From assembly GCA_964425075.1 (NCBI GenBank), contig CAYRKM010000002.1:162898-226897 (forward strand): DNA of 64,000 bases, in the 5' to 3' direction. The notes beneath the pieces are model-generated. The model did not search any database. It worked only from the letters and a program-made list of their open reading frames with translations, and was not told the origin of the DNA. The translations under genes and the position numbers were made by a program. Shown piece after piece: positions 2,879 to 27,546 of the stretch (positions are counted from its first letter, which is position 1; the number at the start of each line of letters is the position of its first letter). The DNA comes from an uncultured Gammaproteobacteria bacterium (lineage in GTDB: Bacteria; Patescibacteriota; Microgenomatia; Levybacterales; GWA1-39-11).

Positions 2879-4260
2879 ATCTTTTTAAAAACTTTTGGCT
2901 TCCCTTTTGGCTGATCCAAAATCTCATAACCCATTTTTTCAATTTTATGTCTCATTTGATCGGCAAGATGAAATTTGCCATCATTTCGAAGGCTTTGCCT
3001 TTCATCAACCATCTGCAGAATAGTTCCTGGAACTTGAGTCATCTCCACTGCATTATGAAAAATCTTTACTCCCAAAATCTCATCCATTCTTCCTAAAGCA
3101 GCTGCTTTCTGAGCATCTCCTACATTACTCCTTAACATCTCCCACATAATTGATAGTGCTTTTGGCATATTTAAGTCTTGATTTACTGCATGCAAAAAAT
3201 CCATTTCATATTTATCTGCTGCCCCCTGTGGTTCTGGCAATTTGGATGCTATCTCATATATTTTCTTAAGAGCAACTGAAGCAGCTTCTAAGGATTGCCA
3301 AGTAAAATTCATCTCGCTTCTGTAATGTGTTTGCAGGGTAAGATATCTAAATGCTAATGGTGAAAATCCCTTTTCCAAAAGATCATGAATTCTATAGGTA
3401 TTTTCCAAAGATTTACTCATCTTCGTTTCATTAACCCTTAGAAAACCATGATGCACCCAGTAATTTACGAATTTCTCACCAGTTGCGCATTCGGATTGGG
3501 CAATTTCATTTGTGTGATGAACAGGTATATGATCAGTTCCTCCAGTGTGAATATCAAAATGCAGCCCCAAATATTTCATTGACATTGCGCTACATTCAAT
3601 ATGCCATCCGGGAAAACCCTCTCCCCACGGAGATGGCCACCTAAGGAAGTGGTTTTCAAACCTACCTTTTGCAAAAAACCAAAGAGCGAAATCTTGAGGG
3701 TTTTTCTTATCCTTGTCTACCACCACACCCTCTCTTGAACCAACTTCTTTCTCGTCTAATTCTTGCCCCGAAAGTTTCGTGTAATCGGGAAATTTGCTAA
3801 CATCGAAATATATTGCTTGTGGGGTTTGGTATGTATACCCTTTTTCAATAAGTGTCTCAATGAGTGCAATCTGATCTTCAATATGCTCACTTGCCCTTGG
3901 TGCAACATCTGGTTTTATAGCATTTACCCTTTTTAAACTATCCCAAAAATCCTCTTCAAAAAACCGAGCTACCTCAATCGGCGTTTTTCCGTGTTTCTCT
4001 GCTCCTTTCTCTAATTTATCAATTCCTTCGTCATTGTCTGAAGTCAAATGTCCAACATCTGTTATATTCATTACGTGCTTAACTTCATAATCATTTGCTT
4101 TTAAAACTCGAACCAAAATATCATCTCCGATGTATTTTCGAAGGTGACCGATATGCGTAAAGTCATACACGGTTGGACCACAACAATATATTCCTACTTT
4201 TGCAGGGTTAATTGGAGAAAATTCCTCAAGCTTACGAGTTAATGAATTAAAGAGTTGCAC
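2875..4260 (-). CDS. cysS: cysteinyl-tRNA synthetase
   Basis: HIGH-type motif CGPTVYDFTHIGHLRKY, KMSKSLEN motif, class I CysRS architecture. Confidence 0.95.
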   Translation of the reverse strand: MQLFNSLTRKLEEFSPINPAKVGIYCCGPTVYDFTHIGHLRKYIGDDILVRVLKANDYEVKHVMNITDVGHLTSDNDEGIDKLEKGAEKHGKTPIEVARFFEEDFWDSLKRVNAIKPDVAPRASEHIEDQIALIETLIEKGYTYQTPQAIYFDVSKFPDYTKLSGQELDEKEVGSREGVVVDKDKKNPQDFALWFFAKGRFENHFLRWPSPWGEGFPGWHIECSAMSMKYLGLHFDIHTGGTDHIPVHHTNEIAQSECATGEKFVNYWVHHGFLRVNETKMSKSLENTYRIHDLLEKGFSPLAFRYLTLQTHYRSEMNFTWQSLEAASVALKKIYEIASKLPEPQGAADKYEMDFLHAVNQDLNMPKALSIMWEMLRSNVGDAQKAAALGRMDEILGVKIFHNAVEMTQVPGTILQMVDERQSLRNDGKFHLADQMRHKIEKMGYEILDQPKGKPKVFKKI

Positions 4261-4267
4261 AGCCTCA

Positions 4268-4273
4268 ATTGTA
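4268..4273 (-). promoter_or_regulatory. putative -10 box (TACAAT on minus strand) 7 nt upstream of the cysS ATG (leaderless arrangement)
   Basis: Minus-strand read: ...TACAATtgaggctATG. Confidence 0.3.
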
Positions 4274-4345
4274 CCAGAATGGAGATAAAGAAGAAAGACT
4301 TGGAGATTAAACTCCTAAACATTCCTTAAGAGTTGATTTGGGAAG

Positions 4346-5635
4346 TTATTTAGACAAAGATTTTACTGCTTCCAAAATTTGATTGTCCAAGTTATCTTTT
4401 AGCTTGCTGCTTTGAGTGGCATCAAATTTTATTTCTATGTCTGGTTTTAGTCCCTTTTCATGTACCCATGTGCCTTTTGGAGTTAGCCATTTAGCAATGG
4501 ACACATGCACGCTTCCACCACCATCAATATCTGCTGCTTGCTGAATAGTTCCTTTCCCAAAGGTATTCTCACCTATCAACTTAGCCCTGCTATAATCACG
4601 TAGAGCGCCTGATAAAATTTCAGAAGCTGAGGCTGATCCTTTATTTACAAGCACAACAAGTGGAATGTCTAAAAGCACTCCTCGTCTATTTACACGCAAA
4701 GGTTCTTGCCTCCCACTTCCATCTTCTTGAATAACAATAGGCCCATCCTTTATAAATTCTGAAGCTATATAAACAGCATCATTAAGATAGCCCCCTGGAT
4801 TGTTTCGAACATCCAGAATAATACCCTTGAAATTGGGGGCTTTCTGAATTTGAGGAACCAAGGAGTTAATAGCACTCATCCATTCATCATTTGTTTTGTC
4901 TCCAAATTGAGAAACTCTAATGTAGGCAATGCTTGCACAATTTTGGCAACTGGATGCTACCTGGCAAGAACTACCACTACAATTAAAATACTTTATCCAT
5001 GTAGTGACACTCTTTATCTGAATAACATCTCTTGTTATTGAAATGTCACGTGCATTTTTTTCATTCTCATGAATAATTGTAAGTGATACCTTTGTTCCTT
5101 TTGGTCCCCTTATCTTCTCGACTGCCTGAGCAACAGTCCAACCATAAGTCGTTTTTCCATCCACTTTCGTAATAACATCACCACTTTTTATTCCTGCTTT
5201 TATTGCAGGAGAACCGTCTAAAGGCGAAATCACCTCTACCTGATTTTGGTCGTTGATTGTAAGTTCTGCTCCTATTCCAGAGAATTCACCAGCAAGTTGG
5301 GTCTTAAAACTCTCATTTTCTTTAGGTGGAAAAAATGATGTATATGGATCAGAGAGACTCTGAAGCATTCCAGAAATTGCACCATACACCATTTTGTTTC
5401 CATCAATTTTTGATTTGTCATAGTAATCAGAATTGATTCGCTCGACAACATCATAAAAAAGGCGCATATCAAGCGTAGTTGTAGCTGGTGGAGATTGATT
5501 TTTGATTGCAACAATTGGACGATAATTCTTCCATTGCGCAGCGACTTTATAGTTTCCAAGCAAATATCCTATCCCAATGGATATAAAAATTACGATAAAA
5601 AGCTGAAAGACACGAATGGAAATCTTCTTTGACAT
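4346..5635 (-). CDS. ctpA: carboxyl-terminal processing protease (S41 family) with PDZ domain
   Basis: PDZ GIKSGDVITKVDGKTT; S41 catalytic region NKGSASASEILSGAL with upstream K. Start set to the internal ATG (MSKKISIRV) because the track start is TTG and a TATACT box lies 7 nt upstream of that ATG. Confidence 0.88.
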   Translation of the reverse strand: MSKKISIRVFQLFIVIFISIGIGYLLGNYKVAAQWKNYRPIVAIKNQSPPATTTLDMRLFYDVVERINSDYYDKSKIDGNKMVYGAISGMLQSLSDPYTSFFPPKENESFKTQLAGEFSGIGAELTINDQNQVEVISPLDGSPAIKAGIKSGDVITKVDGKTTYGWTVAQAVEKIRGPKGTKVSLTIIHENEKNARDISITRDVIQIKSVTTWIKYFNCSGSSCQVASSCQNCASIAYIRVSQFGDKTNDEWMSAINSLVPQIQKAPNFKGIILDVRNNPGGYLNDAVYIASEFIKDGPIVIQEDGSGRQEPLRVNRRGVLLDIPLVVLVNKGSASASEILSGALRDYSRAKLIGENTFGKGTIQQAADIDGGGSVHVSIAKWLTPKGTWVHEKGLKPDIEIKFDATQSSKLKDNLDNQILEAVKSLSK

Positions 5636-5739
5636 AGCATCTAGTATATCACCAAAAAAACACAAAATAAAAATAACGCGCTAAATGGAAAATAATTGAA
5701 GTGTCGTTTTGTTTTGACGAGCAAAAATTATAGCCCGCG

Positions 5740-6977: not shown

Positions 6978-7006
6978 TTGACTCAGAATTTAAGGTGTAC
7001 TAAACT
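6978..7006 (+). promoter_or_regulatory. sigma70-like promoter TTGACT-N17-TAAACT, 9 nt before the htrA ATG (leaderless or near-leaderless)
   Basis: Direct reading: ctcTTGACTcagaatttaaggtgtacTAAACTatttgacgtATG. Confidence 0.4.
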
Positions 7007-7015
7007 ATTTGACGT

Positions 7016-8140
7016 ATGAAAAGACTTGTTATTTCTCTCATAATAGTCTTCACATTGGCCCTCATTTGGGATACATTTTCAAATAATAATCTCCAAAACT
7101 TTTTTTCTTCAAAAATATCTCAAAATGGCGAAAGTGTAAATGTCGTAAAAGAAGAGTCAGCTGTCATTGACATCGTTAAAAAAGTAAGTCCATCTGTTAT
7201 TACAATTGCAGTAAAACAAAAAAAGACAACAGAAGATCCCTTTTCTATATTTTTTAATGAAACACCAGAAAACAATGAACCAATTCCTGAAGAACAATAT
7301 ATTGGCACAGGTTTTGTTGTCAGAAAAAATGGAGTTATTGTAACTAATAAACATGTTGTTTCAGACACCAGCGAAGATTATATTGTTGTTGATGAAAAAG
7401 GGAATAAATTCGATGTTGAAAATATTTACAAAGATCCGGTTAATGATATTGCTATCATTTCAATTAAGAACCCGCCCATCAATGGTCTACCGGTTATTAC
7501 TTTGGGCAGTTCAAAAAATCTACAAGTAGGGCAATTTGTTGTTGCTATCGGAACTGCTCTTGGAGAATTTAGAAATACAGTTACTACGGGAGTTGTTTCA
7601 GGACTTGGTCGCGGAATTACCGCAGGCAGCCCATATGAGAGATTTACGGAAAGACTTGATAACGTTATTCAGACTGATGCTGCAATAAATCCCGGTAATT
7701 CAGGTGGTCCTCTATTAAATTCTAAAGGTCAAGTAATTGGCGTTAACACTGCTGTTTCAAGTCAGGGTCAGAATATTGGCTTTGCAATTCCAATTGATAC
7801 TGTAAAAGAGTCTCTTAATAACTTCACCAAAACCGGTGAATTTGAGCGCCCATTTTTAGGTGTTTCATATAATCTCATCTCGCAACGTGCAGCACTCCTA
7901 AACGAAATGCCACAGGGAGCACTTGTTCAAGACGTTGTTAAGGATTCAGCGGCTGAGAATGCAGGAATCAAACCAGGAGATATTATTACAGAAATTGATG
8001 CACAGAAAATTAATGACACTGACAAAACAATTGCTGCTATTATTTCAAAGAAAAAAATTGGGGACACAATAAAAATTAAAATATATAGGGACAATAAAAC
8101 AGAAGAGGTTTCTGCTAAACTAAAAAAGGCAGAACTTTAA
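7016..8140 (+). CDS. htrA: HtrA/DegP-family serine protease with C-terminal PDZ domain
   Basis: His region TNKHVV, Asp DIAII, Ser GNSGGPLLN; PDZ GIKPGDIITEIDAQ; N-terminal TM. Confidence 0.92.
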   Translation: MKRLVISLIIVFTLALIWDTFSNNNLQNFFSSKISQNGESVNVVKEESAVIDIVKKVSPSVITIAVKQKKTTEDPFSIFFNETPENNEPIPEEQYIGTGFVVRKNGVIVTNKHVVSDTSEDYIVVDEKGNKFDVENIYKDPVNDIAIISIKNPPINGLPVITLGSSKNLQVGQFVVAIGTALGEFRNTVTTGVVSGLGRGITAGSPYERFTERLDNVIQTDAAINPGNSGGPLLNSKGQVIGVNTAVSSQGQNIGFAIPIDTVKESLNNFTKTGEFERPFLGVSYNLISQRAALLNEMPQGALVQDVVKDSAAENAGIKPGDIITEIDAQKINDTDKTIAAIISKKKIGDTIKIKIYRDNKTEEVSAKLKKAEL

Positions 8141-8537: not shown

Positions 8538-8584
8538 CCCCTCCTCCACTATCAGCTAGCTTAAAAATGTTGTAAAATCTCTAT

Positions 8585-9808
8585 ATGTCAATTGTGCCCA
8601 AAACATTAAAAGGTTTTCGTGATTTTTTACCTGAAAAGGCTTCCAAGCGCGAATATGTAAGAAAAATTTTAAAAGAAACTTTTGTGTCATTTGGATTTGA
8701 ACCACTCGAAACTCCAAGTCTTGAATACGAGGAAGTTCTGCTTGGTAAATATGGAGAAGAAGGCGATAAATTAATGTACCGGTTTATGGATAATGGGGGT
8801 AGAAAAGTCGCGTTACGCTATGATCAAACAGTACCTCTTGCACGCGTTGTGGCACAATTTCAAAATGATATTCCACTACCCTTTAAAAGACATCAAATGC
8901 AAAATGTTTGGAGAGCTGAAAATACACAAAGAGGAAGATTTAGAGAATTTTTGCAGTGTGATATCGATACAGTTGGTGCATCATCCGCATTAACTGATGC
9001 TGAAATTATTGCGTGTGCCTATGAAGCTTATATTGCTTTGGGGTTTGATGATATAACATTTCTTGTAAATGACCGACTAATTTTTAATGAAGTTACTAAA
9101 GGCACCATAACATCAATAGATAAATTGAAAAAAATAGGTAGAGAGCGGGTTGTTGAAGAATTAGTTTCACGCGGTGAATACGACTCCTCTGAAACAGCTG
9201 AAAAGGTTCTGATAAAAATTGAACAATCAGAACCAACGCCTTGGATAAATGACGTCATAGAAACTGCAAAGAAATTAGGAGTCCCAGAACGAGCTATTCA
9301 ATTTTCTCCAACTCTTGCTCGAGGACTGGACTACTACACTTCTACTATTATTGAAGCAGTTACCCCATCTTATGAGGTTGGTTCATTGGGTGGAGGAGGA
9401 AGGTATGACAAACTTATTGGACTATTTTCAAATAAAGCGCTTCCTGCAGTTGGCTTTGCGTTTGGTTTTGATAGAGTAATTGAAGCAATGGAAGACCTTG
9501 GCCTTTTTCCTGAAGAATTAACACATGTAAAAGCGCTCGTTACCGTTTTTTCAGAAGAAACAAAAGACGCCTCACTTAAAGCAGTAAGAATTTTGCGACT
9601 TGGTAATATTTCTACAGATATTTATCTTGACGAAAATTACAAAATGGAGAAACAAATAAAATATGCCATAAAAAAACAAATTCCCTATATTGTAATAATC
9701 GGACCCGAAGAAAAGGCAAAAGGTGTTGCTGCTGTTAAAAATTTAAAAAGCGGACTTCAAACAACTATTCTCTTAGAGAATCTTACGGACGCAATTGAGG
9801 AAAACTAA
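8585..9808 (+). CDS. hisS: histidyl-tRNA synthetase
   Basis: Class II motifs LKGFRDFLP, YRFMDNGGRKVALRYDQTVPLAR, RFREFLQCDID; C-terminal anticodon-binding domain IVIIGPEEKAKGVAAVKNLKSG. Confidence 0.93.
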   Translation: MSIVPKTLKGFRDFLPEKASKREYVRKILKETFVSFGFEPLETPSLEYEEVLLGKYGEEGDKLMYRFMDNGGRKVALRYDQTVPLARVVAQFQNDIPLPFKRHQMQNVWRAENTQRGRFREFLQCDIDTVGASSALTDAEIIACAYEAYIALGFDDITFLVNDRLIFNEVTKGTITSIDKLKKIGRERVVEELVSRGEYDSSETAEKVLIKIEQSEPTPWINDVIETAKKLGVPERAIQFSPTLARGLDYYTSTIIEAVTPSYEVGSLGGGGRYDKLIGLFSNKALPAVGFAFGFDRVIEAMEDLGLFPEELTHVKALVTVFSEETKDASLKAVRILRLGNISTDIYLDENYKMEKQIKYAIKKQIPYIVIIGPEEKAKGVAAVKNLKSGLQTTILLENLTDAIEEN

Positions 9809-9862
9809 AATCTTAATACCCTCTGGATTTTAAATAAGAAACCTGCGTAGAATTAATATTGG

Positions 9863-10768
9863 ATGAAAAATACGCAAAAGGCCGTTTTTGCACTAATTCT
9901 TGCAAATTTTATTTGGGGAGCAGCTGCACCCATATTTAAGTGGTCGCTTGAAAGCACACCACCCTTCACGCTTGCCGTGCTTCGATTTGGAATTGCTTCA
10001 CTTATTTTTCTTCCTTTGGCCAAGAGACATTCCTTTTCAATAAAAAGCAAACATATTCTACTTCTTATCATTATGTCTTTTTTGGGAGTTTCACTTCATA
10101 TAAGCTTTTTCTTCTTGGGACTTGGATATACAGATAGTATCAATGCACCAATTATTGCCTCGTCAGGCCCCTTATTTATTATTCTTTTTGGTTTCTTATT
10201 TCTTAAGGACAAGATAAAAAAAAGAACAATGATTGGAGCATTTATTGGGCTTTTGGGAGTACTTGCTATCATTGTGCTTCCCGCTGTGGAGAAAGGTTTG
10301 GATGGATCTATAGTTGGAAACGTTTTTTTTGTAATAGCTATGCTTGCGGGAGTTATATACGCATTACTTTTAAAAAAACTCATGAATGGATATCATCCTT
10401 TTACTATAGCTTTTTGGACTTTCTTAATAGGAACAATAGGATTTCTTCCAATGTTTTTTGATGAAATTCAAAGAGTTGGTTTTTTGCCCATAATTAATAC
10501 TCAAGTTATTGTTGGGATTCTTTTTGGCGCCCTTCTATCTTCCTCTCTTGCATATGCACTACAAATGTGGGCGCTTCAAAAGATGTCCGTTGAGGATGTT
10601 GGTTTGTTTGCCTACGTTGACCCTGTTATTGCGGTTCTAATTGCCGCGCCGCTTTTGGGCGAACAACCAACATCTGTTTTCTTTGCTGGCTCCTTCTTTG
10701 TGTTTTTTGGAATTTATATTGCCGAAGGAAGAATACATTGGCACCCCATTCACAGACTCTTCAAATAA
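9863..10768 (+). CDS. EamA/DMT-family transporter (10 TM)
   Basis: Two EamA repeats, hydrophobic throughout. Confidence 0.8.
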
Positions 10769-10773
10769 TAATA

Positions 10774-10802
10774 TTGCAATTTGAGGCTTTTTCTAGTAAA
10801 AT
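10774..10802 (+). promoter_or_regulatory. promoter TTGCAA-N17-TAAAAT, 7 nt before the rpmE ATG
   Basis: ataTTGCAAtttgaggctttttctagTAAAATagacaaaATG. Confidence 0.35.
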
Positions 10803-10809
10803 AGACAAA

Positions 10810-11100
10810 ATGAAAGCTCAAATTCATCCACAATATTTTGAGAACGCACAAGTAACCTGCTCTTGCGGGAATTCTTTTACTGTGGGTTCAACCGTTGAGA
10901 AAATTCACATCGAGCTTTGCAATAATTGCCACCCATTCTATACAGGACAGCAAAAATTCGTTGATACAGCCTCCCGCATTGAGAAATTCCAGAAAAAAAT
11001 GGAATCAGCACGTCCTGTTATAAAGAAGGCTCAAAAGGAAGTAAAAGAGGACAAAGGCCCATTGACACTCCGGGAAATGCTTCAATCTCTCAAGAAATAG
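10810..11100 (+). CDS. rpmE: 50S ribosomal protein L31 (zinc-ribbon type) with C-terminal basic extension
   Basis: MKAQIHPQY...CSCGNSF...[10 protein letters not shown]; true start is the internal ATG of track ORF 10738..11100. Confidence 0.88.
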
Positions 11101-11115
11101 CTAGAGCCTTCCATA

Positions 11116-12045
11116 ATGGACAAAGATACACTCCTTGCACAACTATACGCTCTTGATTTTAAAATTGCAGAAGCAGAAAAATTAACCTCTGATCCTGAAT
11201 TATCCTCTATGGCTTATGAAGAAATTGCTTCATTGAAAAAGCAAAAGGAAGAACTTTCAAAGCTTGTCGATATGCCTACTTTTGAAAACTCCACTCAAGC
11301 TACAAAAGACAATGCTTCTTCCCTTGATATGCGTCCAGCTATTATTGAAGTAAAGGGTGCAGCTGGGGGAGATGAGGCCAATATTTTTGCGAGGGAACTT
11401 GTAAGACTTTATATGCGCTATGCCGAGAGAAAAGGTCTAAGGGCAGAAATGATGGACGAATATGCTCTTAAAATTTCGAATCATAAGGCTTTTGGTATTT
11501 TTAAATTCGAAGCAGGCGTACATAGGGTTCAAAGAGTGCCTGAAACTGAAAAGCGCGGAAGAGTTCATACGTCAACTGCAGTTGTTTCAGTTCTTCCTGA
11601 GCTTGCTGATATTGACCTTCACATTAGACCAGAAGAAATAGAATTTGACGCGTTTCGCTCAGGAGGACATGGAGGACAAAATGTAAATAAAGTTTCAACT
11701 GCGGTAAGACTTAAACATATCCCAACTGGTATTGTAGTAACCTGTCAAACAGAACGACATCAAGCACAAAATAGAGAAAACGCGATGGGAATGCTTCGTG
11801 CAAAATTGTGGGAGCTTGAAGTTGAAAAACAAAACAAGGAAGTTTCAGAACTTAAGTCTACTCAAGTTGGAAAAGGAATGCGAAATGAGAAGATCCGCAC
11901 ATATAACTTCCCACAAGATAGAGTTACTGACCATAGAATTGGAAAGTCTTATCATAACCTTCCCACTTTTATGGATGGGGATATCGACCAAATGCTAAAA
12001 GACCTCAAAGAATCAGAAACTTTAGCTACTACTCCCCAGGCTTAA
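11116..12045 (+). CDS. prfA: peptide chain release factor 1
   Basis: GGQ motif [13 protein letters not shown]; RF1-type tripeptide region RVPETEK; shortened N-terminus. Confidence 0.9.
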
Positions 12046-12373
12046 TTAACTCTGGCCAAGTACGATAATAATTCTCTTCATTACCCTCAGGCTTTTTTGC
12101 AAGCGGCACAACAAACACATTTCTACCGCCTTGACTCATCATTAAATCTCCAGATGCAACCAGTCCCTCCAAGCTTGCTTTTAAAATATGGGGATCAACT
12201 CTACCAGCAACCTCTTCTAGGGAATCGGACATAACCATATCGGTGAACCAGGGTGTTTTTGCCTCAGCAAAACCTCCTGCAATCTCAACAATTTGCCCTT
12301 GAATTTCCCTTGAAATCATGCGCTCCGACTGATGCGTTCCGCCAATTTTTCTTAAAAACTCTCGAAGTTCCAT
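12029..12373 (-). CDS. hypothetical protein (114 aa), possibly a PPC/DUF296-like fold
   Basis: Compositionally distinct ORF; weak resemblance only. Confidence 0.35.
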
Positions 12374-12440
12374 ATGCGTATTATAGGATTTAAATAAAGA
12401 AATTTCAATCGCTTTACCAACTTAAGAGGTAAATTCCAAA

Positions 12441-13385
12441 TTATTGATTTTGAAGAACTTCGACAACTTGGGACAAAGTAAGCTTTGTGCCATTCATTGT
12501 AGGATTTTTTGAGCTTCCATTAAGAAGCATGCGTTTGGAAGCATGAAGAAACCATGAGGCATCGGGATCCATTTTCTTGAGCTTTTTGTAATATGGAGTT
12601 AAATCAATTGTTTTGATAAGGTCTTGTTTCTTTTTCTCTTCTTCATTTTTAATTCCTAATTCTTCATTTTTACTTCTAACATCAGGTAGTGCTTTGATTC
12701 GAATGAATCCACCATTTGGGTCCTTTCGTACGGCCAAAACATACCCTCTCATCTGAGAAAGCTTAAGAACCTCATCATTTATTGTCTCGATTGCCAAAGA
12801 CTTGCCCCATTTTGAGGTAAATTCAATACCCTTCTTATTTATTTCCTCTTCTGCCCAAATTCTTGTTTCCAAACTATGAAGTGCAACATCCAAACACTCC
12901 ATAATAAAATTGACTAATTTTGCATCATCCTTTTGAAACATTAACTTATGCCCCTGAATCAACTCAACTATTCCTAACGCATAAATATCTTTATTGCTAT
13001 CTGGATAATAAACCTCCTGAAAATGATCATCATCAATCACTAACTCAACAATTCTTTCTACTGCTTCTTTCTTAACTTCATGCTTATGAAGGTTTGACTC
13101 AGGATTTTTGAGAATAAAATCCAAAGTTAATTTTGCACCACAAGTGTTATTATCTGAAGTTTGGTGGTGGTCAAGAGCTCCCATTCCCGTATCAACGTGT
13201 ATTGTTTCAACTCCATCTACTAATTCTATTGGATTACCCTCATTTTTATATTCACCTGGTAATCTGTCTCCAGCAGACACAAATTCCACCTCTGCCCCAT
13301 CCCAATCAGGGTAAAATCTCTTCAAAAGCCAAACAGAGGCAATTGCGTCAAGGTCAGAGCTTTTATGAGTTACTATTCTTCGCAT
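12441..13385 (-). CDS. DHH-family phosphoesterase (NrnA-like)
   Basis: Motifs HKSSDLDAIAS, DTGMGALDHHQ (DHH); start moved to the internal ATG MRRIVTHK to avoid a divergent overlap. Confidence 0.78.
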   Translation of the reverse strand: MRRIVTHKSSDLDAIASVWLLKRFYPDWDGAEVEFVSAGDRLPGEYKNEGNPIELVDGVETIHVDTGMGALDHHQTSDNNTCGAKLTLDFILKNPESNLHKHEVKKEAVERIVELVIDDDHFQEVYYPDSNKDIYALGIVELIQGHKLMFQKDDAKLVNFIMECLDVALHSLETRIWAEEEINKKGIEFTSKWGKSLAIETINDEVLKLSQMRGYVLAVRKDPNGGFIRIKALPDVRSKNEELGIKNEEEKKKQDLIKTIDLTPYYKKLKKMDPDASWFLHASKRMLLNGSSKNPTMNGTKLTLSQVVEVLQNQ

Positions 13386-13480
13386 AATATCAGTATATAT
13401 TAACTTTCCCTTAAAGTTGAGTAGTATATCCAAATCTATCAAGCTTGACAAGTATGAATATTTAACCCTACTATTAATGT

Positions 13481-13963
13481 ATGGATGGAAAGAAACAAAC
13501 AAATTTAACACCAGAACTTAAGGAAATATATGACAGAGTTATGAATACTTCTGCTGCACCAAAACCTGCAGCCTCCCCCCAATCACCATCATCTCCACTT
13601 GCCTCTCCAACGCCTCCCCCCACTCCAGCTTCACCTACCACACCTCCACCTACATCAGAGCCCACCATGGCACCTCTTGGTGCTTCACCCACCACTTCTC
13701 CACCCGGAATAGGAATGCCAAATACAAATACGGCTGAGGAGGCATTAACTTCTTCTCCTCCACGGCCAGTTTCTCAAGTGGACGGAACAAAACCTTTCTC
13801 CTTTAGCGGAACTGCATCAAGCACACCCGCTACAAAAGACACGAGTGCAAAGTCTTTAAAAAAACCTGTTATTTCTATGCCAATTTTGATAGTCCTTGGA
13901 ATTGCTTTTGTTGCAGTATGGGCTGTTTTCTGGCTCGTTATCTTGGGGTTTATTAGCCGTTAG
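13481..13963 (+). CDS. Pro/Thr/Ser-rich low-complexity protein with C-terminal TM anchor
   Basis: SPQSPSSPLASPTPPPTPASPTTPPPTSEPT... then C-terminal helix ILIVLGIAFVAVWAVFWLVILGF. Confidence 0.5.
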   Translation: MDGKKQTNLTPELKEIYDRVMNTSAAPKPAASPQSPSSPLASPTPPPTPASPTTPPPTSEPTMAPLGASPTTSPPGIGMPNTNTAEEALTSSPPRPVSQVDGTKPFSFSGTASSTPATKDTSAKSLKKPVISMPILIVLGIAFVAVWAVFWLVILGFISR

Positions 13964-15225
13964 GCAACTTTTTGGAGTAACTCTTCTTCAGAAATTATAC
14001 TTACTTCCGCTTCATTTCTTTTTTTAAGTTCCACTTTTCCTTCCAATTTTGAGGATAAAACCACCCGGTAAGGAATTCCTAAAAGATCACAGTCTGCAAA
14101 TTTCTCTCCAGGGGTTTTATCTTGTCTGTCATCAAACAGCACCTCAGCACCTTTATCAGTTAACTTTTTGTAAAGGCTGTCTGCTTCCTCATCTTTTCCA
14201 ATTGAAATAAGACAAAATGTATATGGCGCAATTTCCTCAGGCCAAATAATTCCTTTATCGTCATGTAATTTTTCTACGAGTACTCCCATTACACGAGATA
14301 TTCCCAAACCATAACATCCCATTATTGGAAATTGCTTATTGCCATCTTTATCTAAATATCCTAAGTCAAAATCTTTACTGTATTTCTGTCCAAGATCAAA
14401 AACATTACCCACTTCTGAAGCTCTTCCCATTTTCAAACCCGAAGTATTACATTTTGGACAATCATCTCCTTCTTTTAAATTGTCCGCAACTTCCACATTG
14501 ACGCAATAATCACAACTATTACAATATAAAATATCGTCTTCACCAGCATCGGTTAAAACCATGAATTCATATGAGATTTTTTTACTAAAACTTCCACCTG
14601 AGGCCTCAGTTGCTTTTGCGACAAGACCCAATCTTTCAAAAATTCTAATGTATGATTCTTTGACAATTTTGTAGTACCTATCAAAATCGTCCTGACTTTC
14701 ATGGAATGAATACATATCCTTCATATAAAATTCACGACCTCGTAAAATTCCTGATTTTGCACGGAGTTCGTCCCTATATTTCCAGTGTATTTGATAAACT
14801 GAAAGAGGAAGATCTTTGTAAGAATTAACGCGTGATAAAACCAAAGGAGTTACAACCTCCTCCTCAGACTGACCAATTGCATACTCCTTATCAGTTCTAC
14901 TTTTAACCTTGAATAAAACATCGATCCCATCCCATCCTCCAGTTTTTACCCAATTTTCTTTTGGATGAAGAACAGGCATCAGTAACTCATTGCCACCAAT
15001 AACATTCATTTCCTCCCTTACTACACCTTCTATTTTTCTAAGCACTCGAAGTCCGAGTGGAAGATAACTATAAACACCTGCCATAAGCTGCTCAACAAAT
15101 CCTGCTTGAGTTAGCAATTTATGATTTATTGTTTCTGCGTCCTTAGGTGCGTAACGCAGGGTTTTGCCAAAAAGTTGTGAATATCGCATGAGGATAGTAT
15201 ACCTCAGCGCTCGTCCGTTTTTCAA
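13960..15225 (-). CDS. proS: prolyl-tRNA synthetase, bacterial-type core lacking the INS editing domain
   Basis: MRYSQLFGKTLRYAPKDAE..., class II motifs; the INS position holds only about 20 aa with a CxxCxxC...CxxC cluster. Confidence 0.9.
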   Translation of the reverse strand: MKNGRALRYTILMRYSQLFGKTLRYAPKDAETINHKLLTQAGFVEQLMAGVYSYLPLGLRVLRKIEGVVREEMNVIGGNELLMPVLHPKENWVKTGGWDGIDVLFKVKSRTDKEYAIGQSEEEVVTPLVLSRVNSYKDLPLSVYQIHWKYRDELRAKSGILRGREFYMKDMYSFHESQDDFDRYYKIVKESYIRIFERLGLVAKATEASGGSFSKKISYEFMVLTDAGEDDILYCNSCDYCVNVEVADNLKEGDDCPKCNTSGLKMGRASEVGNVFDLGQKYSKDFDLGYLDKDGNKQFPIMGCYGLGISRVMGVLVEKLHDDKGIIWPEEIAPYTFCLISIGKDEEADSLYKKLTDKGAEVLFDDRQDKTPGEKFADCDLLGIPYRVVLSSKLEGKVELKKRNEAEVSIISEEELLQKVA

Positions 15226-15234: not shown

Positions 15235-15984
15235 CTACGCAACTTTTGATATTGGCGCCACATCTGCTCCCTTATCCTGGCGTTCCAACATTTTTCTCAA
15301 AAACTCGTCGTACTCTGTTATGTTACTTCCAGTTCTTTTGACAGGCTTTTTTCTTGCAACTGTTTGGTTGTATCCGTAATTTTCTTCCTCTGGTTTGGCA
15401 AGTGACTCCAACAGATTCCCCATCATCGCTACAAATATTTCAAGAAGCGATACCTTTTCTTTCTCATCTTCCTCTTTCTCTATGATTCTTCGTAAGAGCA
15501 CAGCCATTTGTTGCAATACTTCAAGAGATAACTGTAAGTTCTCGTTTGTACTCTTGAGTTGCTCAGCAAGTTGTTGATTCTTGCCTTCAAGATCTACAAC
15601 TTTAGCCTCAAGTTCATTAATTCTCTCAAGCACCATAATTTTCTCTATATCTTCTTCCTCAGTTTTTGGTTTATCGCGAGTTTCTTCCAAAACTTCTTCT
15701 TCCTCATCCTGAGTGTTATTATCACTTGTTGCCATTCCTTCTTCTGTTTCAGGTTCGTCTTCTCCCAAACTGATTAATGCCTCCTCCATGCCTTCATCTC
15801 TCACTCTATCCAAAAGCGCATCTGCATCATTTTTTCCTTCGTCTGATGCAATTATTTCGTCTTGAGCAGCGACTACAACGTTTTGCTGAGCAATTTCACT
15901 AAAATACCCCTCCTCATCAAAGTTCTGAGTAGAAGTAACTGCGGTTGGTGTGTTTGCTGTCATATTTATTCCTTCCATATACAT
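15235..15984 (-). CDS. hypothetical acidic coiled-coil protein
   Basis: D/E-rich N-terminus, central heptad region. Confidence 0.45.
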   Translation of the reverse strand: MYMEGINMTANTPTAVTSTQNFDEEGYFSEIAQQNVVVAAQDEIIASDEGKNDADALLDRVRDEGMEEALISLGEDEPETEEGMATSDNNTQDEEEEVLEETRDKPKTEEEDIEKIMVLERINELEAKVVDLEGKNQQLAEQLKSTNENLQLSLEVLQQMAVLLRRIIEKEEDEKEKVSLLEIFVAMMGNLLESLAKPEEENYGYNQTVARKKPVKRTGSNITEYDEFLRKMLERQDKGADVAPISKVA

Positions 15985-16038
15985 TCACCTCCCTTCGTCA
16001 GCTTTGCCTCCTCAGGGCAAGCCAATCTAATTTTCGTC

Positions 16039-16692: not shown

Positions 16693-16734
16693 AAAAATTT
16701 GACTAAAATTTGAGGCTGAAGTATACTACAAGAT

Positions 16735-17085
16735 ATGACTGCAGAAATTCCAAATGGCGTGCCGGATAACGTAACTCCTATTGCGCCTCATATAGAATTT
16801 TACACAAGTTTGGGAACAGGAGAAATCCCCGATAGGGCCCGTTTTGTGCTCAAAGAGGTGCTTCCGACACTTGGTCTTTACTGTCCACAGGGAGAAGAAG
16901 GTCAAATAATGGTTAGTAAGTTACTTTTGTGGTTAAGTCGGCATCCTAATGAACCAGAGGGTTATGCCCCCAATTCGTTAACCCAAACTAATGAAGGGCA
17001 ACTAACTCAAGCAAGAAGGTTTAGAGACATAGAAAGATTTGAGGAAAGAAGAGCTAGACCTCAAGATGGGAACCAATTAACTTAG
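16735..17085 (+). CDS. hypothetical protein
   Basis: ORF with R/E/G-rich atypical composition. Confidence 0.35.
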   Translation: MTAEIPNGVPDNVTPIAPHIEFYTSLGTGEIPDRARFVLKEVLPTLGLYCPQGEEGQIMVSKLLLWLSRHPNEPEGYAPNSLTQTNEGQLTQARRFRDIERFEERRARPQDGNQLT

Positions 17086-17959: not shown

Positions 17960-18064
17960 AGAAATATAATTACAAATTGACCTAATTATTCTAATTTTCC
18001 TAATTCAATAACTTTATTAGAAATTAGATCAATTAGAAATTAGTCATTGCCTGGCAGAGGCCTT

Positions 18065-18352
18065 TTACTCTCCGCCACCACCAAATAATGAACTTAGTCC
18101 AGCTCCCATTGATTGCATTTTCATTGCACTCTTTTTTTGAGCCTTCTCAACCGCGTCATTTATGGCGTCTTTTACGTCCGACATTTCCTCACCATTTATC
18201 TCAATGGACTTTAATTTCATATTTCCATTCATGATAACTTTTGCTCTTCCCTTTTCGGTTTCTACCTCAATTTGCTCAAGTTCTCTTTGGATTTGTTTGG
18301 CAGTATCTCTTAGTTTTTTAAGTTCTCCTGCTTGTTTTAATGGATTAAACAT
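18065..18352 (-). CDS. ybaB: YbaB/EbfC nucleoid-associated protein
   Basis: MFNPLKQAGELKKL...GGGGE; typical length and motifs. Confidence 0.88.
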   Translation of the reverse strand: MFNPLKQAGELKKLRDTAKQIQRELEQIEVETEKGRAKVIMNGNMKLKSIEINGEEMSDVKDAINDAVEKAQKKSAMKMQSMGAGLSSLFGGGGE

Positions 18353-18391
18353 ACATTCACCCCCTTCACATCATTATACAGAATAATTCTT

Positions 18392-18901
18392 CTAAAGAAA
18401 GTCCTCACGAGACGCAACAAAATCATGATATCTTTCAATCTGTGTTCTTCTTCTTTGCTCCATTTCTTCATAAGTCATACCATGAAGTTCAGTTTGCAAA
18501 GCATTTCTAAAAGTGGTCATTCTTTCCGTAAGAATTCTTTGAATATTATCATTAAAAATAGCTCCATCAAACAATCTCTCGCTATGTCTTTTTGATTGAT
18601 GAGCACTCACAGCGTTAAACGCATCCATAAAGACCTGCCTTTCACTCTCAGTTAATGCTGCCCATCCCCCAGCCTCGCAACACTGCCTAATTAACCCCAT
18701 ATAATCTACCCCTTGATTAATAGCATACCATTCTAGTTTTATTACCTGCGCACCAAATGAACCGTAAGATCCGTCATGAGACTGAATATAAAAATCCATA
18801 AAATTAGCTCTTGTCAACGGGGCTCCTGAAATAAATGGCTCCATGCCGCCTTCTTCCTGCGACAAAGCAAATTCTATAGGAACTGGGGAACGGTTTTCCA
18901 T
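18392..18901 (-). CDS. hypothetical protein (169 aa), atypical R/E/G/W-rich composition
   Basis: No recognizable family by eye. Confidence 0.4.
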   Translation of the reverse strand: MENRSPVPIEFALSQEEGGMEPFISGAPLTRANFMDFYIQSHDGSYGSFGAQVIKLEWYAINQGVDYMGLIRQCCEAGGWAALTESERQVFMDAFNAVSAHQSKRHSERLFDGAIFNDNIQRILTERMTTFRNALQTELHGMTYEEMEQRRRTQIERYHDFVASREDFL

Positions 18902-19000
18902 AAAAAGAGCTTAAATTTTAATTCTTTCCTTAGTTTATGTCAACGTTCTCACACGAGTCTTCTGAAATTAATGAAACTTAAACAATCAGCACCCAAATGA

Positions 19001-19006
19001 TATAAT
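19001..19006 (+). promoter_or_regulatory. -10 box TATAAT 6 nt before the ispH ATG
   Basis: aaatgaTATAATtgcatcATG. Confidence 0.3.
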
Positions 19007-19012
19007 TGCATC

Positions 19013-20053
19013 ATGCCAACTGAAAGATTGTTCCAACCAAAAGTTGAAATTTCCCCACAATCGCCACTCGGACTTGAAGAAGTTTTGGTGGCAGGCAACA
19101 GAGGTACTTGTGGTGGAGTAAGAATGGCAATTGAAGCTGCTCAGCAGGTAGTAGATATTGTTGCAAAGCGAGAACCAATCTATATCAATTGGAACATTGT
19201 TAACAATAGATTAACCGCTCAACATTTCCAAGAACAAGGGGTTATTGATGTTGCCAACGATCTTAGCCTTGTCCCAGACGATTCGATTCTTCTTTTTTCA
19301 GCACATGGTGTTGCTCCTTCTTTTTACGAAGAGGCAGAAAGAAGAAATCTTCTTGCTATTGATGCGACTTGCCAATTGGTAGAAAGAGGACATTGGCTCG
19401 CTCGACGGGCTGCAGAACGTGGAGAACATGTATTCTATATTGGCGACGCCGCACACCCAGAAACTCAGGGGATAGTAGGTGAACTAAAAGAAGGAGAGTA
19501 TACTCTTCTTGAAAAACCTGAAGATGTAGATGCTGTATCTATTCCCGAAGGACCTAGTATTGTCCTTTCTAAGACAACACTTGGTGCTGCAGAAATTGTT
19601 CCCATAATTAAACCTCTCCATGATCGTGTAGGAGATAACTTAAAGGTTCCAACAAAACATGACACTTGTTTCGCCACTGACAACAGACAAGATGCAGTAA
19701 GGGATTTGATAGGTAGAACAAATGCTCTTCTTGTTGTTGGTTCAGGTCATAGCCACAACTCACAGCAGCTTAGATTAATTGGAGAAAAAAGTGGACTCCC
19801 ATCCTGGTCTGTAGATACCCCTGAAGAAATAGAGAGAAGTTGGTTTACGGATGAAATAAAAAAACTCGGGATCACCTCTGGAGCTTCTGTTGTAGGTCTT
19901 TACACTGAAAGAGTTCTTGATTACTTTAGAAACGAAGGAATTCCTATAACATATGTAGATCCAGTTGCAGAAGAGCCAGAAATCATGTTTAAATTACCCA
20001 TAGGCGACATCAATAAACTCAGGATGAGATATAATATGGATCCTATTCAATAA
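19013..20053 (+). CDS. ispH: 4-hydroxy-3-methylbut-2-enyl diphosphate reductase (IspH/LytB)
   Basis: NRGTCGGVRMAIEAA (first Cys motif), FSAHGVAPS, DATCQLV, VVGSGHSHNS. Confidence 0.88.
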   Translation: MPTERLFQPKVEISPQSPLGLEEVLVAGNRGTCGGVRMAIEAAQQVVDIVAKREPIYINWNIVNNRLTAQHFQEQGVIDVANDLSLVPDDSILLFSAHGVAPSFYEEAERRNLLAIDATCQLVERGHWLARRAAERGEHVFYIGDAAHPETQGIVGELKEGEYTLLEKPEDVDAVSIPEGPSIVLSKTTLGAAEIVPIIKPLHDRVGDNLKVPTKHDTCFATDNRQDAVRDLIGRTNALLVVGSGHSHNSQQLRLIGEKSGLPSWSVDTPEEIERSWFTDEIKKLGITSGASVVGLYTERVLDYFRNEGIPITYVDPVAEEPEIMFKLPIGDINKLRMRYNMDPIQ

Positions 20054-20056: not shown

Positions 20057-20605
20057 ATGAATTCAAGTCCTTACTTAAAACTAAAACAAATGATTGCAAC
20101 TTGTGACAGAAAGGGCAATATCACGGGGGAAATTGAGAAATGGGAAGCACACAAAAAAGGAATTTTACACCGGGCTTTTACTGTAGCTATTATTTACAAA
20201 GGTAATTTGCTTGTTCAGCACAGAAAACACGTTGCTTTTGACGGGGTTTTGGACGTCACTATCTCTTCCCACCAATTGATGGTAAACGGTAAATTAGAAG
20301 ATACAATCCAGTCAACGCTTAATACTTTAAAACGTGAATGGAATATTTCAAAAAACGACTTGGTAAAACCCTTAAAAAATGAGGGGTTTGTTTATTACAA
20401 GGCAAAGGATAAATTTAGTGAATTTACCGAACATGAGGTTTGTGATCTTTTGGTAGCGGAAATAAAAACATTAAAAGAGCCAAATTTTGAATTCGCTTAC
20501 GGATATTCTCTTGTTATAAAAGAAGAATTAATGCGCAGGAATTCACGTCTATACAAAAATCTCGCTCCATGGGTAAAAGTAATGCTAAAGAAGAATCTTC
20601 TTTAG
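20057..20605 (+). CDS. idi: Nudix-fold isopentenyl-diphosphate delta-isomerase type 1-like protein (catalytic Cys position is Ser)
   Basis: AHKKGILHRAFTVAIIY and TEHEVCDLLVAE match IDI-1 motifs. The region corresponding to TNSVCGHP reads DVTISSHQ. Confidence 0.65.
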   Translation: MNSSPYLKLKQMIATCDRKGNITGEIEKWEAHKKGILHRAFTVAIIYKGNLLVQHRKHVAFDGVLDVTISSHQLMVNGKLEDTIQSTLNTLKREWNISKNDLVKPLKNEGFVYYKAKDKFSEFTEHEVCDLLVAEIKTLKEPNFEFAYGYSLVIKEELMRRNSRLYKNLAPWVKVMLKKNLL

Positions 20606-21978
20606 TTTGGAAGAACTTTCATTATCAATTTTACATTTTTTCCAAGTAATTTTTCCGCGGCTTTCTCAATGACACTACGGATTTGCTCACTCTTTAGTTT
20701 CTCAGCATGAATTGTAAAAGGAGTTGTAATAACTAAGGTGTCATCTACTATTTGCGCGTCTTTGCACGACTTAAGTAACGCTCCGCCTTGCTTACTATCA
20801 AGATTTACCTCTCCAACTAGTTTTAAAAGTAATTCATTGGTCATGATACTTGAAGCTTCTTTTTTCTGAATTGGTATTTCGGTTGTTGTTTTTGGTGTAT
20901 CTACTACTTGCTCAGATTTTACATCTTCACTCACTACTGTTCCAAGTTCACACCATTTTATGGTAACAAGTTCTAATGGAAGCTGGGGAATTACGGAATA
21001 TTTCAACTCAGAATATGCCTCATTTACCAATTCCAAGATCATACGAAGGTCAGATGGCGTAAAAGGTATGTCTTTCTCGTCACTTGGAATTCTACTACGC
21101 AACATTAAAATACCCCTTAGGTGATCTACAATTCTCTCGATAATCATTTTAAAATCATATCCGTTATCAGATAGCTTTTGAATAATAAGAAGTGCTTCTT
21201 TTGTTTCTTTTTTATGAAGAGATTTAAGATACGAATTTACTTCTTCTTTTATGCTATTTGTTTTATAAAGACTTTCCAATAATTTTGTGTCTATCTTTTC
21301 CCCTTTTGAGGCAAATGAGAGTTCCTCCAGAATTTTTGCTCCATCTCGAAAACTGCCTTCTGACATTTTGAAAATTTCCTCAAGAACACCTTTTTCTACA
21401 GATAATTTTTCTCCTTTTACTATTCGCTCAAGGGAAGAAACAAGTTCTTTTTGTGTTGGTTTTTCGAATTGTACTTGAAAAGTTCGAGATACTACTGTTG
21501 CGGGAAGTTTGTGAAGTTCTGTTGTTGCTAGCACAAAAACCACATGACTTGGCGGCTCCTCTAGTGTTTTTAAAAGGGCATTGAAGGCACCAGTGGAAAG
21601 CATGTGCACCTCGTCAATTATGTAAACTTTTTTGCTAAGCCCGGTGGAGGCAAATTTCACCCTTTCTCGCAGAGTTCGTATCTCATCTACTCCACCATTT
21701 GACGCAGCATCAATTTCCAAAACATCTATGTTTGATCCGTCAGTTATTGATTTGCACACATCACACTTGTTACATGGCTCGATCCCTTTTCTGTTTGGAC
21801 AATTTATGGCTTTTGCCAAAATCCTTGCACTAGAAGTTTTACCAAGTCCTTTAGAGCCCGTAAAAAGCAGAGCATGAGGAAGTTCTTTTGAAGAAAGAAT
21901 GGATGTTAATTTTTCACGAACAGCATCTAAGTCAAGTTCTGAAATTGTTTGAGGACGATATTTACGATAAAAAACCAT
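20602..21978 (-). CDS. dnaX: DNA polymerase III subunit gamma/tau
   Basis: YRKYRPQTISEL, Walker A GSKGLGKTS, Zn cluster CPNRKGIEPCNKCDVC, sensor ATVVSR. Confidence 0.92.
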   Translation of the reverse strand: MVFYRKYRPQTISELDLDAVREKLTSILSSKELPHALLFTGSKGLGKTSSARILAKAINCPNRKGIEPCNKCDVCKSITDGSNIDVLEIDAASNGGVDEIRTLRERVKFASTGLSKKVYIIDEVHMLSTGAFNALLKTLEEPPSHVVFVLATTELHKLPATVVSRTFQVQFEKPTQKELVSSLERIVKGEKLSVEKGVLEEIFKMSEGSFRDGAKILEELSFASKGEKIDTKLLESLYKTNSIKEEVNSYLKSLHKKETKEALLIIQKLSDNGYDFKMIIERIVDHLRGILMLRSRIPSDEKDIPFTPSDLRMILELVNEAYSELKYSVIPQLPLELVTIKWCELGTVVSEDVKSEQVVDTPKTTTEIPIQKKEASSIMTNELLLKLVGEVNLDSKQGGALLKSCKDAQIVDDTLVITTPFTIHAEKLKSEQIRSVIEKAAEKLLGKNVKLIMKVLPN

Positions 21979-22474: not shown

Positions 22475-22517
22475 ATAAGATTAGTATAGGGATATTCTTG
22501 GCGTTCGTAAATAAGAA

Positions 22518-22700: not shown

Positions 22701-22875
22701 AAAAAAACACCTCCTTTAGAATACTTTTTCAAACTTTATGAGCTTGAAATCTCGAATACTACGAGATATATAATCATACATTATAGTACAAACTTGGAAA
22801 AAAGAAAACTCCATAATGATTGCTATATCTAGTAAAAAGTGCTAAATTACGCCATACTAAATTAAGCTGGCACTT

Positions 22876-27420: not shown

Positions 27421-27509
27421 ATCGCAAGATTATACCAAACTTGAACTTGATTCAAAATCAATTAATTACCTGAGTATTTATTCTTAGAATAAATCTGTTC
27501 ACTTTAATT

Positions 27510-27538
27510 TTGACTTCAGTTCTGATTAGGAGTATAAG
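27510..27538 (+). promoter_or_regulatory. promoter TTGACT-N17-TATAAG, 8 nt before a small-ORF ATG
   Basis: ttTTGACTtcagttctgattaggagTATAAGaaagttatATG. Confidence 0.35.
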
Positions 27539-27546
27539 AAAGTTAT

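Follow-up and report, generated by a model that had tools for sequence, protein, structure and literature searches.

Promoters placed against start codons suggest leaderless or near-leaderless genes without Shine-Dalgarno use in a Levybacteria genome segment

The window and its promoter-start units

We have analysed a 64-kb window of bacterial DNA (the whole stretch of 64,000 nucleotides; 37% GC) in which many genes carry, a few nucleotides before the start codon, a hexamer like the −10 box of a sigma-70 promoter. At htrA (6978-7018, plus strand) the arrangement is exactly TTGACT-17-TAAACT-9-ATG, and ATG 7016 opens a 374-amino-acid (aa) HtrA/Do-family protease (NCBIfam). Throughout, the spacer is the number of nucleotides (nt) between the −10 hexamer and the start codon, and the box is TANNNT; the htrA spacer of 9 nt allows a leader of 0-3 nt. 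A sequence-only reading of the window had cited htrA and seven further genes as cases of a widespread, lineage-wide leaderless mode of initiation without Shine-Dalgarno (SD) sequences. A regular-expression check located six of the seven with the sequences given for them: the zinc-ribbon gene (36916-36954), the small open reading frame (ORF) at 27547 (27510-27549), glyA (54836-54873), rpmE (10774-10812), ispH (TATAAT-6-ATG, 19001-19015) and ctpA (TATACT-7-ATG, 5648-5633, minus strand). For cysS, read as TACAAT-7-ATG, the box and the spacing stand and the start codon does not: a pattern search of the minus strand of the window found no TACAAT-7-ATG, and the codon after tgGTACAAT-7 is a GTG at 4260 (minus strand). 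An ATG start for cysS was rejected, the cysteinyl-tRNA synthetase (CysRS) profiles aligning, at their position 2, from this GTG.

The best GlyA matches with phylum-level names are Candidatus Levyibacteriota/Levybacteria metagenome-assembled genomes (MAGs), namely L001 (78% aa identity), L008, L009, L012, L015 and L022. Next in the ranking, at 55-66% aa identity, are Daviesbacteria, WWE3, Roizmanbacteria and Woesebacteria, all of them Microgenomates within the Candidate Phyla Radiation (CPR, or Patescibacteria). By similarity ranking of a single marker, GlyA, the window is assigned to Candidatus Levybacteria (Microgenomates, CPR/Patescibacteria). Records titled 'uncultured Gammaproteobacteria' (L002-L006, L011, L014, L018, L020, L025, L028 and possibly L039) have GlyA 50-78% identical to that of the window. 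These titles look wrong, since GlyA ranks the MAGs among Levybacteria, Daviesbacteria, Roizmanbacteria and Woesebacteria.

The GlyA search also supplied the comparison set of 30 CPR loci (~560 kb), with ~50 non-CPR loci as controls; L039 is counted among the controls, yet it is rich in heptamer arrays and may be mislabelled. For 70-74 long ORFs without overlaps, the gene start was set at the first ATG in frame; this rule is blind to upstream sequence. Start codons were checked independently by NCBIfam profile alignments, and for the comparison of orthologues homology to proteins of the window served to place the starts in relatives. The 31 promoter-start units of the window (30 with ATG and one, cysS, with GTG), followed by two promoters with short implied leaders, are listed below.

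4258-4297, minus: cysS, TGgTACAAT-7-GTG, extended −10 with weak −35; GTG 4260 = CysRS profile position 2
5633-5671, minus: ctpA/prc, TGaTATACT-7-ATG
6978-7018, plus: htrA (NCBIfam Do-family protease), TTGACT-17-TAAACT-9-ATG
8549-8587, plus: hisS, TAAAAT-6-ATG; ATG 8585, residue 7 = profile position 2
9824-9865, plus: drug/metabolite (DMT) transporter, TAGAAT-9-ATG
10774-10812, plus: rpmE (L31), TTGCAA-17-TAAAAT-7-ATG; ATG 10810, residue 1 = profile position 1
12371-12408, minus: 114-aa ORF, TTGAAA-17-TATAAT-6-ATG, 11/12 consensus match
13383-13420, minus: 314-aa ORF, TATACT-6-ATG; second promoter TTGTCA-17-TATACT 37 nt upstream
13445-13483, plus: 160-aa ORF, TTGACA-18-TACTAT-6-ATG
15187-15225, minus: proS, TTGAAA-18-TATACT-6-ATG; ATG 15189, residue 1 = profile position 1
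16699-16737, plus: 116-aa ORF, TTGACT-17-TATACT-7-ATG
18979-19015, plus: ispH, TAAACA-16-TGaTATAAT-6-ATG
22472-22511, minus: ybeY, TTTACG-17-TATACT-8-ATG
22839-22878, plus: 262-aa ORF, TAAGCT-7-ATG (weak)
27418-27457, minus: ychF, TGgTATAAT-8-ATG; residue 3 = profile position 2
27510-27549, plus: 57-aa ORF resembling a small membrane protein, TTGACT-17-TATAAG-8-ATG
27969-28009, plus: 152-aa ORF resembling a membrane protein, TTGACA-17-TATTCT-9-ATG
31080-31119, minus: alpha/beta hydrolase, TCGACC-18-TATACT-7-ATG
31723-31759, plus: 163-aa ORF, TACAAT-6-ATG
36916-36954, plus: zinc-ribbon protein, TTGACT-17-TACGAT-7-ATG
37511-37550, plus: glycoside hydrolase, TTGTAA-17-TACGAT-8-ATG; overlapping TTGATA-17-TAAAAT with spacer 17
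39585-39623, minus: 218-aa ORF, TGaTACGAT-6-ATG, only 12 nt after the upstream gene
43030-43069, minus: trhO, TGtTAAAAT-7-ATG; residue 5 = profile position 1
46364-46402, minus: 202-aa ORF, TAGAAT-6-ATG
47542-47579, plus: CofE-like gamma-glutamate ligase, TACAAT-6-ATG; residue 1 = profile position 1
48320-48358, plus: 275-aa ORF, TTGACA-18-TAATGT-6-ATG
50408-50448, minus: frr, TGgTATCTT-8-ATG, within a CGTTTAG heptamer array
51560-51600, minus: rseP, TTTCCA-17-TATAAT-9-ATG
51841-51879, minus: 76-aa ORF, TTGACA-17-CATACT-7-ATG
53687-53725, plus: 278-aa ORF, TTGACT-18-TACACT-6-ATG
54836-54873, plus: glyA, TTGCTA-17-TATACT-6-ATG; ATG 54871, residue 6 = profile position 1
40694-40735, minus: 189-aa ORF, short leader; perfect TTGACA-16-TATAAT, spacer 11, implied leader ~4 nt
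18899-18943, minus: 169-aa ORF, short leader; TTGACA-17-TAAAAT, spacer 13, implied leader ~6 nt

Promoter geometry, Shine-Dalgarno use and recurrence in relatives

The box is concentrated immediately before gene starts. At spacers of 6-9 nt it was found 33 times in 70 ORFs, where the rate at positions 14-49 upstream of these genes predicts 10.4 (P = 2e-8). It precedes 46% of first ATGs; the proportion is 6% for internal ATGs in frame and 11% when all ATGs are counted. The commonest spacer is 6 nt (15 genes). Corrected for chance, a genuine box is present in at least ~37% of genes and ~43% of units that do not closely follow another gene; non-canonical hexamers (CATACT before 51843, TATAAG before 27547) and GTG starts raise the genuine share further.

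The company that the hexamer keeps is that of a promoter. Ten of the 34 start-proximal hexamers have a −35 box (at least 5/6 match to TTGACA, 16-18 nt upstream) compared with 2.2% of all TANNNT in the window (P = 2.6e-9), and with a match of at least 4/6 the proportions are 50% and 14%. Overall, the TGn extension is found on 21% of start-proximal hexamers against 6% of control hexamers, and its distribution is uneven: 6/13 units with a weak −35 (≤3/6) have it but only 1/18 with a good one (≥4/6). Such compensation of a poor −35 by TGn is classical for sigma-70 promoters. The TANNNT hexamers thus behave, in their sequence context, as sigma-70 promoter elements and not as a ribosome signal.

A loose promoter definition (TTGNNN-16-18-TANNNT) was tried and gave 227 sites in 64 kb, mostly noise with only a modest peak, and was replaced by scoring at ≥9/12 and ≥10/12. 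In the window, and likewise in 15 loci of Levybacteria and 11 of other Microgenomates, the density of bipartite promoters scoring at least 9/12 is ~10 times greater at spacers of 5-9 nt than at 26-70 nt. In the AT-rich non-CPR controls the 5-9 bin is nearly empty, the emptiest of all, and the promoters lie at 16-70 nt, as expected of leadered genes. Overall counts are hardly different from shuffled sequence: a consensus scan over 60 kb gave 208 promoter-like sites against 172 in shuffles, only a slight excess, and 57 terminator-like hairpins were found against 45 expected, so that intrinsic terminators show no clear excess. The totals are therefore uninformative, and only position relative to the starts is informative.

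Where same-strand neighbours are separated by less than 25 nt, the box precedes 18% of genes in the window and 20% in relatives; at 25-100 nt the proportions are 59% and 36%. Scarce before tightly packed genes and frequent at the larger distance, it marks transcription units and not every start codon. Same-strand spacers of 32-67 nt (for example 8538-8584, 10769-10809, 47540-47576 and 48324-48355) consist almost wholly of the −35/−10 promoter of the next gene, which leaves no room there for an intrinsic terminator.

One study reports transcription start sites centred 7 bp downstream of the −10 element (PMC12641261). With a spacer of 6, the A of the ATG is the 7th base after the hexamer, that is, the usual start position. 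Of the 25 window genes that have a box at spacer 6-8, 23 have a pyrimidine at −1. In the same genes pyrimidines make up 56% at −2 to −4; the proportion at −1 is 67% for genes without the box, 37% for internal ATGs and 38-46% in the non-CPR controls. A pyrimidine preference confined to −1 fits the Y(−1)R(+1) preference of RNA polymerase with a predicted start on the A of the ATG. We infer from this promoter geometry that transcription would begin at or near the start codon.

The start codons themselves agree with homology. In the profile alignments, residue 1 of ProS, RpmE and the CofE-like ligase falls on position 1, residue 3 of YchF on position 2, residue 5 of TrhO and residue 6 of GlyA on position 1, residue 7 of HisS on position 2 and the cysS GTG on position 2. 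All eight of these starts have spacers of 6-8 nt. IspH has a 21-residue N-terminal extension relative to its profiles, which a 5′-terminal ATG may enforce.

Little sign of SD pairing was found in any class of gene. GGAG, GAGG or AGGA occurs at −17 to −5 of 3% of window starts, compared with 11% at −57 to −45 of the same genes and 12% at internal ATGs. A duplex with ACCUCCUUA of −6 kcal/mol or stronger is predicted for 4% of window starts and 14% of internal ATGs; at the starts of the CPR groups the figure is 7-12%. Under the same crude start rule the non-CPR controls give 32-34% of starts against 10-12% of internal ATGs. None of the 11 tight (operon-internal) window genes has an SD motif, and in relatives the proportion for tight genes, 12%, is no higher than for internal ATGs (12-17%). 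Leadered and operon-internal genes thus mostly lack the SD-type ribosome-binding signal that would be expected of a 'group C' genome (see below).

Rfam and ARAGORN found a single tRNA-Cys and no rRNA in the window, and the anti-SD was for this reason taken from a relative, L004 (Levybacteria, GlyA 77% identity). Its 16S rRNA gene (20179-21314, minus strand, Rfam RF00177) has the 3′ end GGATCACCTCCTTTCT, retaining the anti-SD CCUCCU. With the anti-SD intact in so close a relative, the disuse of SD is not due to its loss. In an earlier survey, detection of the anti-SD was lowered only in a subgroup of Parcubacteria (PMC9297842).

The same pattern recurs in relatives. TANNNT at spacers of 6-9 is enriched 2.3-fold in close Levybacteria, 2.6-fold in distant Levybacteria, 2.4-fold in other Microgenomates and 3.9-fold in four Peregrinibacteria/Parcubacteria loci (each P ≤ 2.5e-5), and none of these groups shows SD enrichment. 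In non-CPR loci below 45% GC, whose upstream regions have 28% GC compared with 32% in the window genes, TANNNT is at 0.9-fold and SD at 35% versus 8%. Among orthologues, a box at spacer 5-9 was found in 28/55 for genes with the signature in the window and 11/48 for genes without it. At rseP, (TG)TATAAT at spacer 6-9 is kept in four of five relatives while the flanks diverge; TATACT-6-ATG of glyA is kept in L003 and L022, and the glyA orthologues of Woesebacteria, Peregrinibacteria and Parcubacteria have boxes at spacer 6-9. The CofE-like ligase orthologues of L011 and L015 have TAAAAT-6-ATG/GTG, and in L004, L005 and L011 the orthologues of the 278-aa ORF (53687-53725) retain both a −35 element and a box with a spacer of 5-6. 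Upstream of starts in the window and the CPR loci, then, the box is localised and SD is not enriched; the box peak and the missing SD signal recur across the 30 related CPR loci, in agreement with the lineage-wide mode proposed earlier.

A few genes are exceptions. Only two window genes have a convincing SD, those starting at ATG 15984 and ATG 18352, both on the minus strand, and the clearest leadered unit in the window is rpsB-tsf:

15982-15995, minus: 249-aa ORF, classical SD exception, GGAGGTGA directly before ATG 15984
18350-18380, minus: 95-aa ORF, leadered SD exception, TGTATAAT-20-ATG 18352, with the SD AAGGGGGTG in a ~14-nt leader
53122-53260, minus: rpsB-tsf, leadered exception, TTGCTA-17-TATAAT ~107 nt upstream of ATG 53124, leader hairpin at 53159-53146

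The rpsB leader may be an autoregulatory leader of the S2 type; Rfam gave no match for it in the window. AAGGAAT is conserved ~8-12 nt before the rpsB ATG in relatives (L004, L005, L006, L009, L011 and L022), and the window lacks it at this place. At 34641-34704 (plus strand) a near-consensus promoter, TTGACA-17-TATATT (11/12), is followed by a hairpin and T-run (34678-34696) ending 5 nt before ATG 34702, which opens a 436-aa ORF without an SD; a sortase-family gene comes next. The 436-aa ORF is a leadered, possibly attenuated gene.

Probable leaderless initiation, its alternatives and known systems

All of the sequence-based tests that we ran agree with leaderless or near-leaderless transcripts. 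We consider it probable, with good confidence, that about 40-50% of the genes are leaderless or have a leader of at most ~5 nt, with their own sigma-70-type promoter abutting the start codon and without use of an SD. The sigma-70 holoenzyme, acting on promoters that fill intergenic spacers of 32-67 nt, would start at, or a few nucleotides from, the A or G of the start codon. The mRNAs produced would have no 5′ leader, or one of ≤~5 nt, and would for that reason have no SD site. We infer the mode of ribosome recruitment to be the leaderless route, in which the 5′-terminal AUG would be recognised directly. This route is established for cI of E. coli and in mycobacteria, Deinococcus and archaea. 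Neighbouring same-strand genes would in many cases be separate leaderless units, translation of tight operon-internal genes would probably depend on coupling or re-initiation, and that of the few leadered genes on an SD-independent route.

Several observations weigh against this interpretation. Roughly one gene in two has no signature, among them dnaX, ssb and prs, whose starts are profile-validated, and the chance rate of the signature is ~14-15% of genes. The description 'widespread' holds for ~40-50% of genes; some promoters lie at 11-15 nt, a few genes are leadered and two have a classical SD. In relatives the peak is broader and lower, with 25-33 matches per 100 genes against 47 in the window. 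The transcription starts are predicted from promoter geometry. The first-ATG rule is crude, having mis-called glyA and cysS, and across the entire window the bare pattern TANNNT-N6-ATG shows no enrichment (the two strands together have 50 matches, and dinucleotide shuffles 47.9 ± 6.6). These last two points are what would be expected if the boxes were chance matches in AT-rich intergenic DNA combined with mis-called starts. The whole-window shuffle was nevertheless rejected as a test of leaderless initiation, as it ignores where the matches fall: 16 of the 50 fall on the first or homology-validated ATG of long ORFs where ~2 are expected. The sharp positional peak over the upstream background, which is lacking in more AT-rich non-CPR controls handled alike, together with −35 co-occurrence, the density of full promoters at spacers of 5-9, the pyrimidine at −1, profile-validated starts and conservation in orthologues, largely refutes an artefact, which we regard as highly improbable.

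A different explanation would make TAnnnT an A/U-rich, non-SD ribosome-binding or enhancer motif in leadered mRNAs transcribed from further upstream, in the manner of the 'group B' genomes of Bacteroidetes. As in that phylum, SD is unused though a close relative retains the anti-SD; the upstream regions are also AT-rich. A TTGACA-like element 16-18 nt away, with TGn added when the −35 is poor, follows the logic of RNA polymerase, however, and not that of the ribosome. In addition, the box is depleted before tight operon-internal genes whereas group B motifs precede all genes (PMC6028130), and the pyrimidine preference is limited to −1. We think this explanation very unlikely. Closer to the leaderless interpretation is one in which transcription usually starts 3-8 nt upstream of the ATG and recruitment depends on the 5′ end but tolerates a leader. 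Several of the strongest promoters do have spacers of 9-15 nt: the perfect TTGACA-16-TATAAT before 40696, TTGACA-17-TAAAAT before 18901 and TTGACA-17-AATACT before 59885 have spacers of 11-15 and implied leaders of 4-8 nt. These promoters, like those at spacer 9 (htrA among them), could with equal likelihood give a leader of several nucleotides or no leader, which also counts against strictly leaderless starts. The 10-15-nt spacer bin is also enriched in the Levybacteria loci, and orthologous promoters range over spacers of 6-9 nt. The modal spacer is 6 nt, on the other hand, all eight homology-validated starts lie at 6-8 nt, and the pyrimidine at −1, followed by a purine at +1, agrees with transcription beginning at the A of the ATG. 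As a general account we therefore hold short leaders to be unlikely, though the difference is a matter of degree; by convention, mycobacterial work counts leaders of up to 5 nt as leaderless.

Leaderless transcription gene by gene is familiar from the group C genomes of GeneMarkS-2, in which 25-50% of transcripts are predicted to be leaderless and gene starts have a Pribnow box at a distance of 6-8 nt (PMC6028130). Group C is frequent in Actinobacteria (90%) and Deinococcus-Thermus (97%), with ~40% of M. tuberculosis operons and 167/262 mapped Deinococcus deserti genes leaderless (PMC6028130). The window resembles these genomes in the distance of the box from the starts of first genes, in a comparable leaderless share, in the use of ATG/GTG and in the lack of SD at these genes. 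In group C, however, leadered and operon-internal genes have a clear SD, whereas here SD pairing is at or below background in all gene classes. The window also differs in belonging to a low-GC lineage of CPR/Microgenomates with a small genome, and in its well-developed −35 boxes, set in spacers of ~40-60 nt between same-strand genes. In the archaeal 'group D' (Haloferax, Sulfolobus/Saccharolobus), too, most units begin at the start codon and SD is little used, but TATA and B recognition elements (BRE) lie ~26 nt upstream and the machinery is archaeal, in place of the bacterial sigma-70 −35/−10 of the window. With group B the window shares an anti-SD CCUCC (seen in the 16S rRNA of the close relative) without SD enrichment upstream of genes; in Bacteroidetes the anti-SD is described as still present, though sequestered (Jha et al. 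2021, cited by PMC9723584). Unlike those predicted here, Bacteroidetes mRNAs have leaders, and their motif stands before every gene, operon-internal genes included (PMC6028130), while the motif of the window is a putative promoter set against the start codon.

The ribosomes of CPR bacteria are stripped down, and the SD-free leaderless mode may be linked to this reduction. Reduced ribosomes and loss of the anti-SD in part of Parcubacteria were described by Tsurumaki et al. 2022 (PMC9297842). That work treats the same superphylum and hints at non-standard initiation in CPR; it covers rRNA and ribosomal proteins and not upstream regions, and leaderless mRNAs are unmentioned. A search of open full texts, pairing leaderless or Shine-Dalgarno with the CPR groups and not extending to the supplementary tables of GeneMarkS-2, turned up no account of leaderless CPR genes. 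Where the terms did occur together, it was among cited references or in brief remarks in work on other subjects (YchF, an Omnitrophota giant gene). The mechanism is thus a known one in a lineage for which we found no prior report, and the SD-free twist is its difference from group C. As to its extent, it is possible, and we suggest it tentatively, that leaderless gene-by-gene transcription with near-total disuse of SD despite the anti-SD is the default in Microgenomates and perhaps in much of CPR/Patescibacteria. If so, leaderless genomes would have a third large bacterial lineage, one without the SD back-up of Actinobacteria and Deinococcus, and the debate as to whether leaderless initiation is ancestral would gain a deep-branching lineage. 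It would also give a concrete and testable picture of initiation in CPR, with many mRNAs probably leaderless and SD unused though the anti-SD is kept. Since CPR genomes are known nearly all as metagenome bins, the annotation of starts matters: gene finders that expect an SD can mis-call them, and a start model anchored on the −10 box would give better CPR proteomes. For the few tractable CPR strains, the predicted design of a construct is a promoter butted onto the ATG with no ribosome-binding site.

YchF is described as promoting the translation of leaderless mRNAs and as retained in CPR (PMC12641178). In the window ychF (26284-27457, minus strand) is itself among the genes with a promoter on the ATG.

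Heptamer arrays and shortened translation proteins

Heptanucleotide tandem repeats of ~2-8 copies crowd the intergenic spacers of the window and of L001, L003-L006, L013 and L028, with a unit that varies from site to site. The window arrays are as follows:

1000-1024, 18016-18043, 44105-44134, 50431-50447, 53246-53275, 53651-53681, 54819-54864, 59858-59873 and 62476-62502: heptamer arrays

In the window, 8 of the 13 intergenic arrays found by Tandem Repeats Finder (TRF) have a period of 7, a density of 10.6 per 10 kb in intergenic compared with 0.7 in coding DNA; in the Levybacteria loci it is 45/74 arrays, with densities of 13.7 and 0.9. Per 10 kb the density of heptamer arrays is 28 in convergent, 22 in tandem and 9.5 in divergent spacers. 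Array edges lie within 14 nt of a start codon in 26 of 65 cases, so that some promoters (glyA, frr) are built from heptamers. At the orthologous glyA site the unit differs among relatives (CTACTTC, ATACTTG, TTCTTAA, ACTATTG). The arrays are reminiscent of the short tandemly repeated repetitive (STRR) heptamers of cyanobacteria, and could be part of the leaderless punctuation, either as building blocks of promoters or as transcript insulators.

Several translation proteins encoded in the window depart in length from their profiles. EF-Ts (51886-52338, minus strand) has 150 aa, and its match to the tsf profile (293 positions) covers positions 2-142 only. ProS (13960-15189, minus strand) has 409 aa and aligns in two stretches to bacterial profiles of 560 aa, which suggests that the insertion (editing) domain is absent. 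In the rpmE-prfA region (10810-12045, plus strand) the rpmE ORF has 96 aa, whereas L31 profiles end at residue 66. The prfA ATG (11116) lies 15 nt after the rpmE stop, and its product aligns only from about position 51-60 of the profiles of release factor 1 (RF1). Some 40-45 N-terminal residues of RF1 appear to be missing, which could reflect either a truncated RF1 of CPR type or a frameshift at the junction of the two genes.

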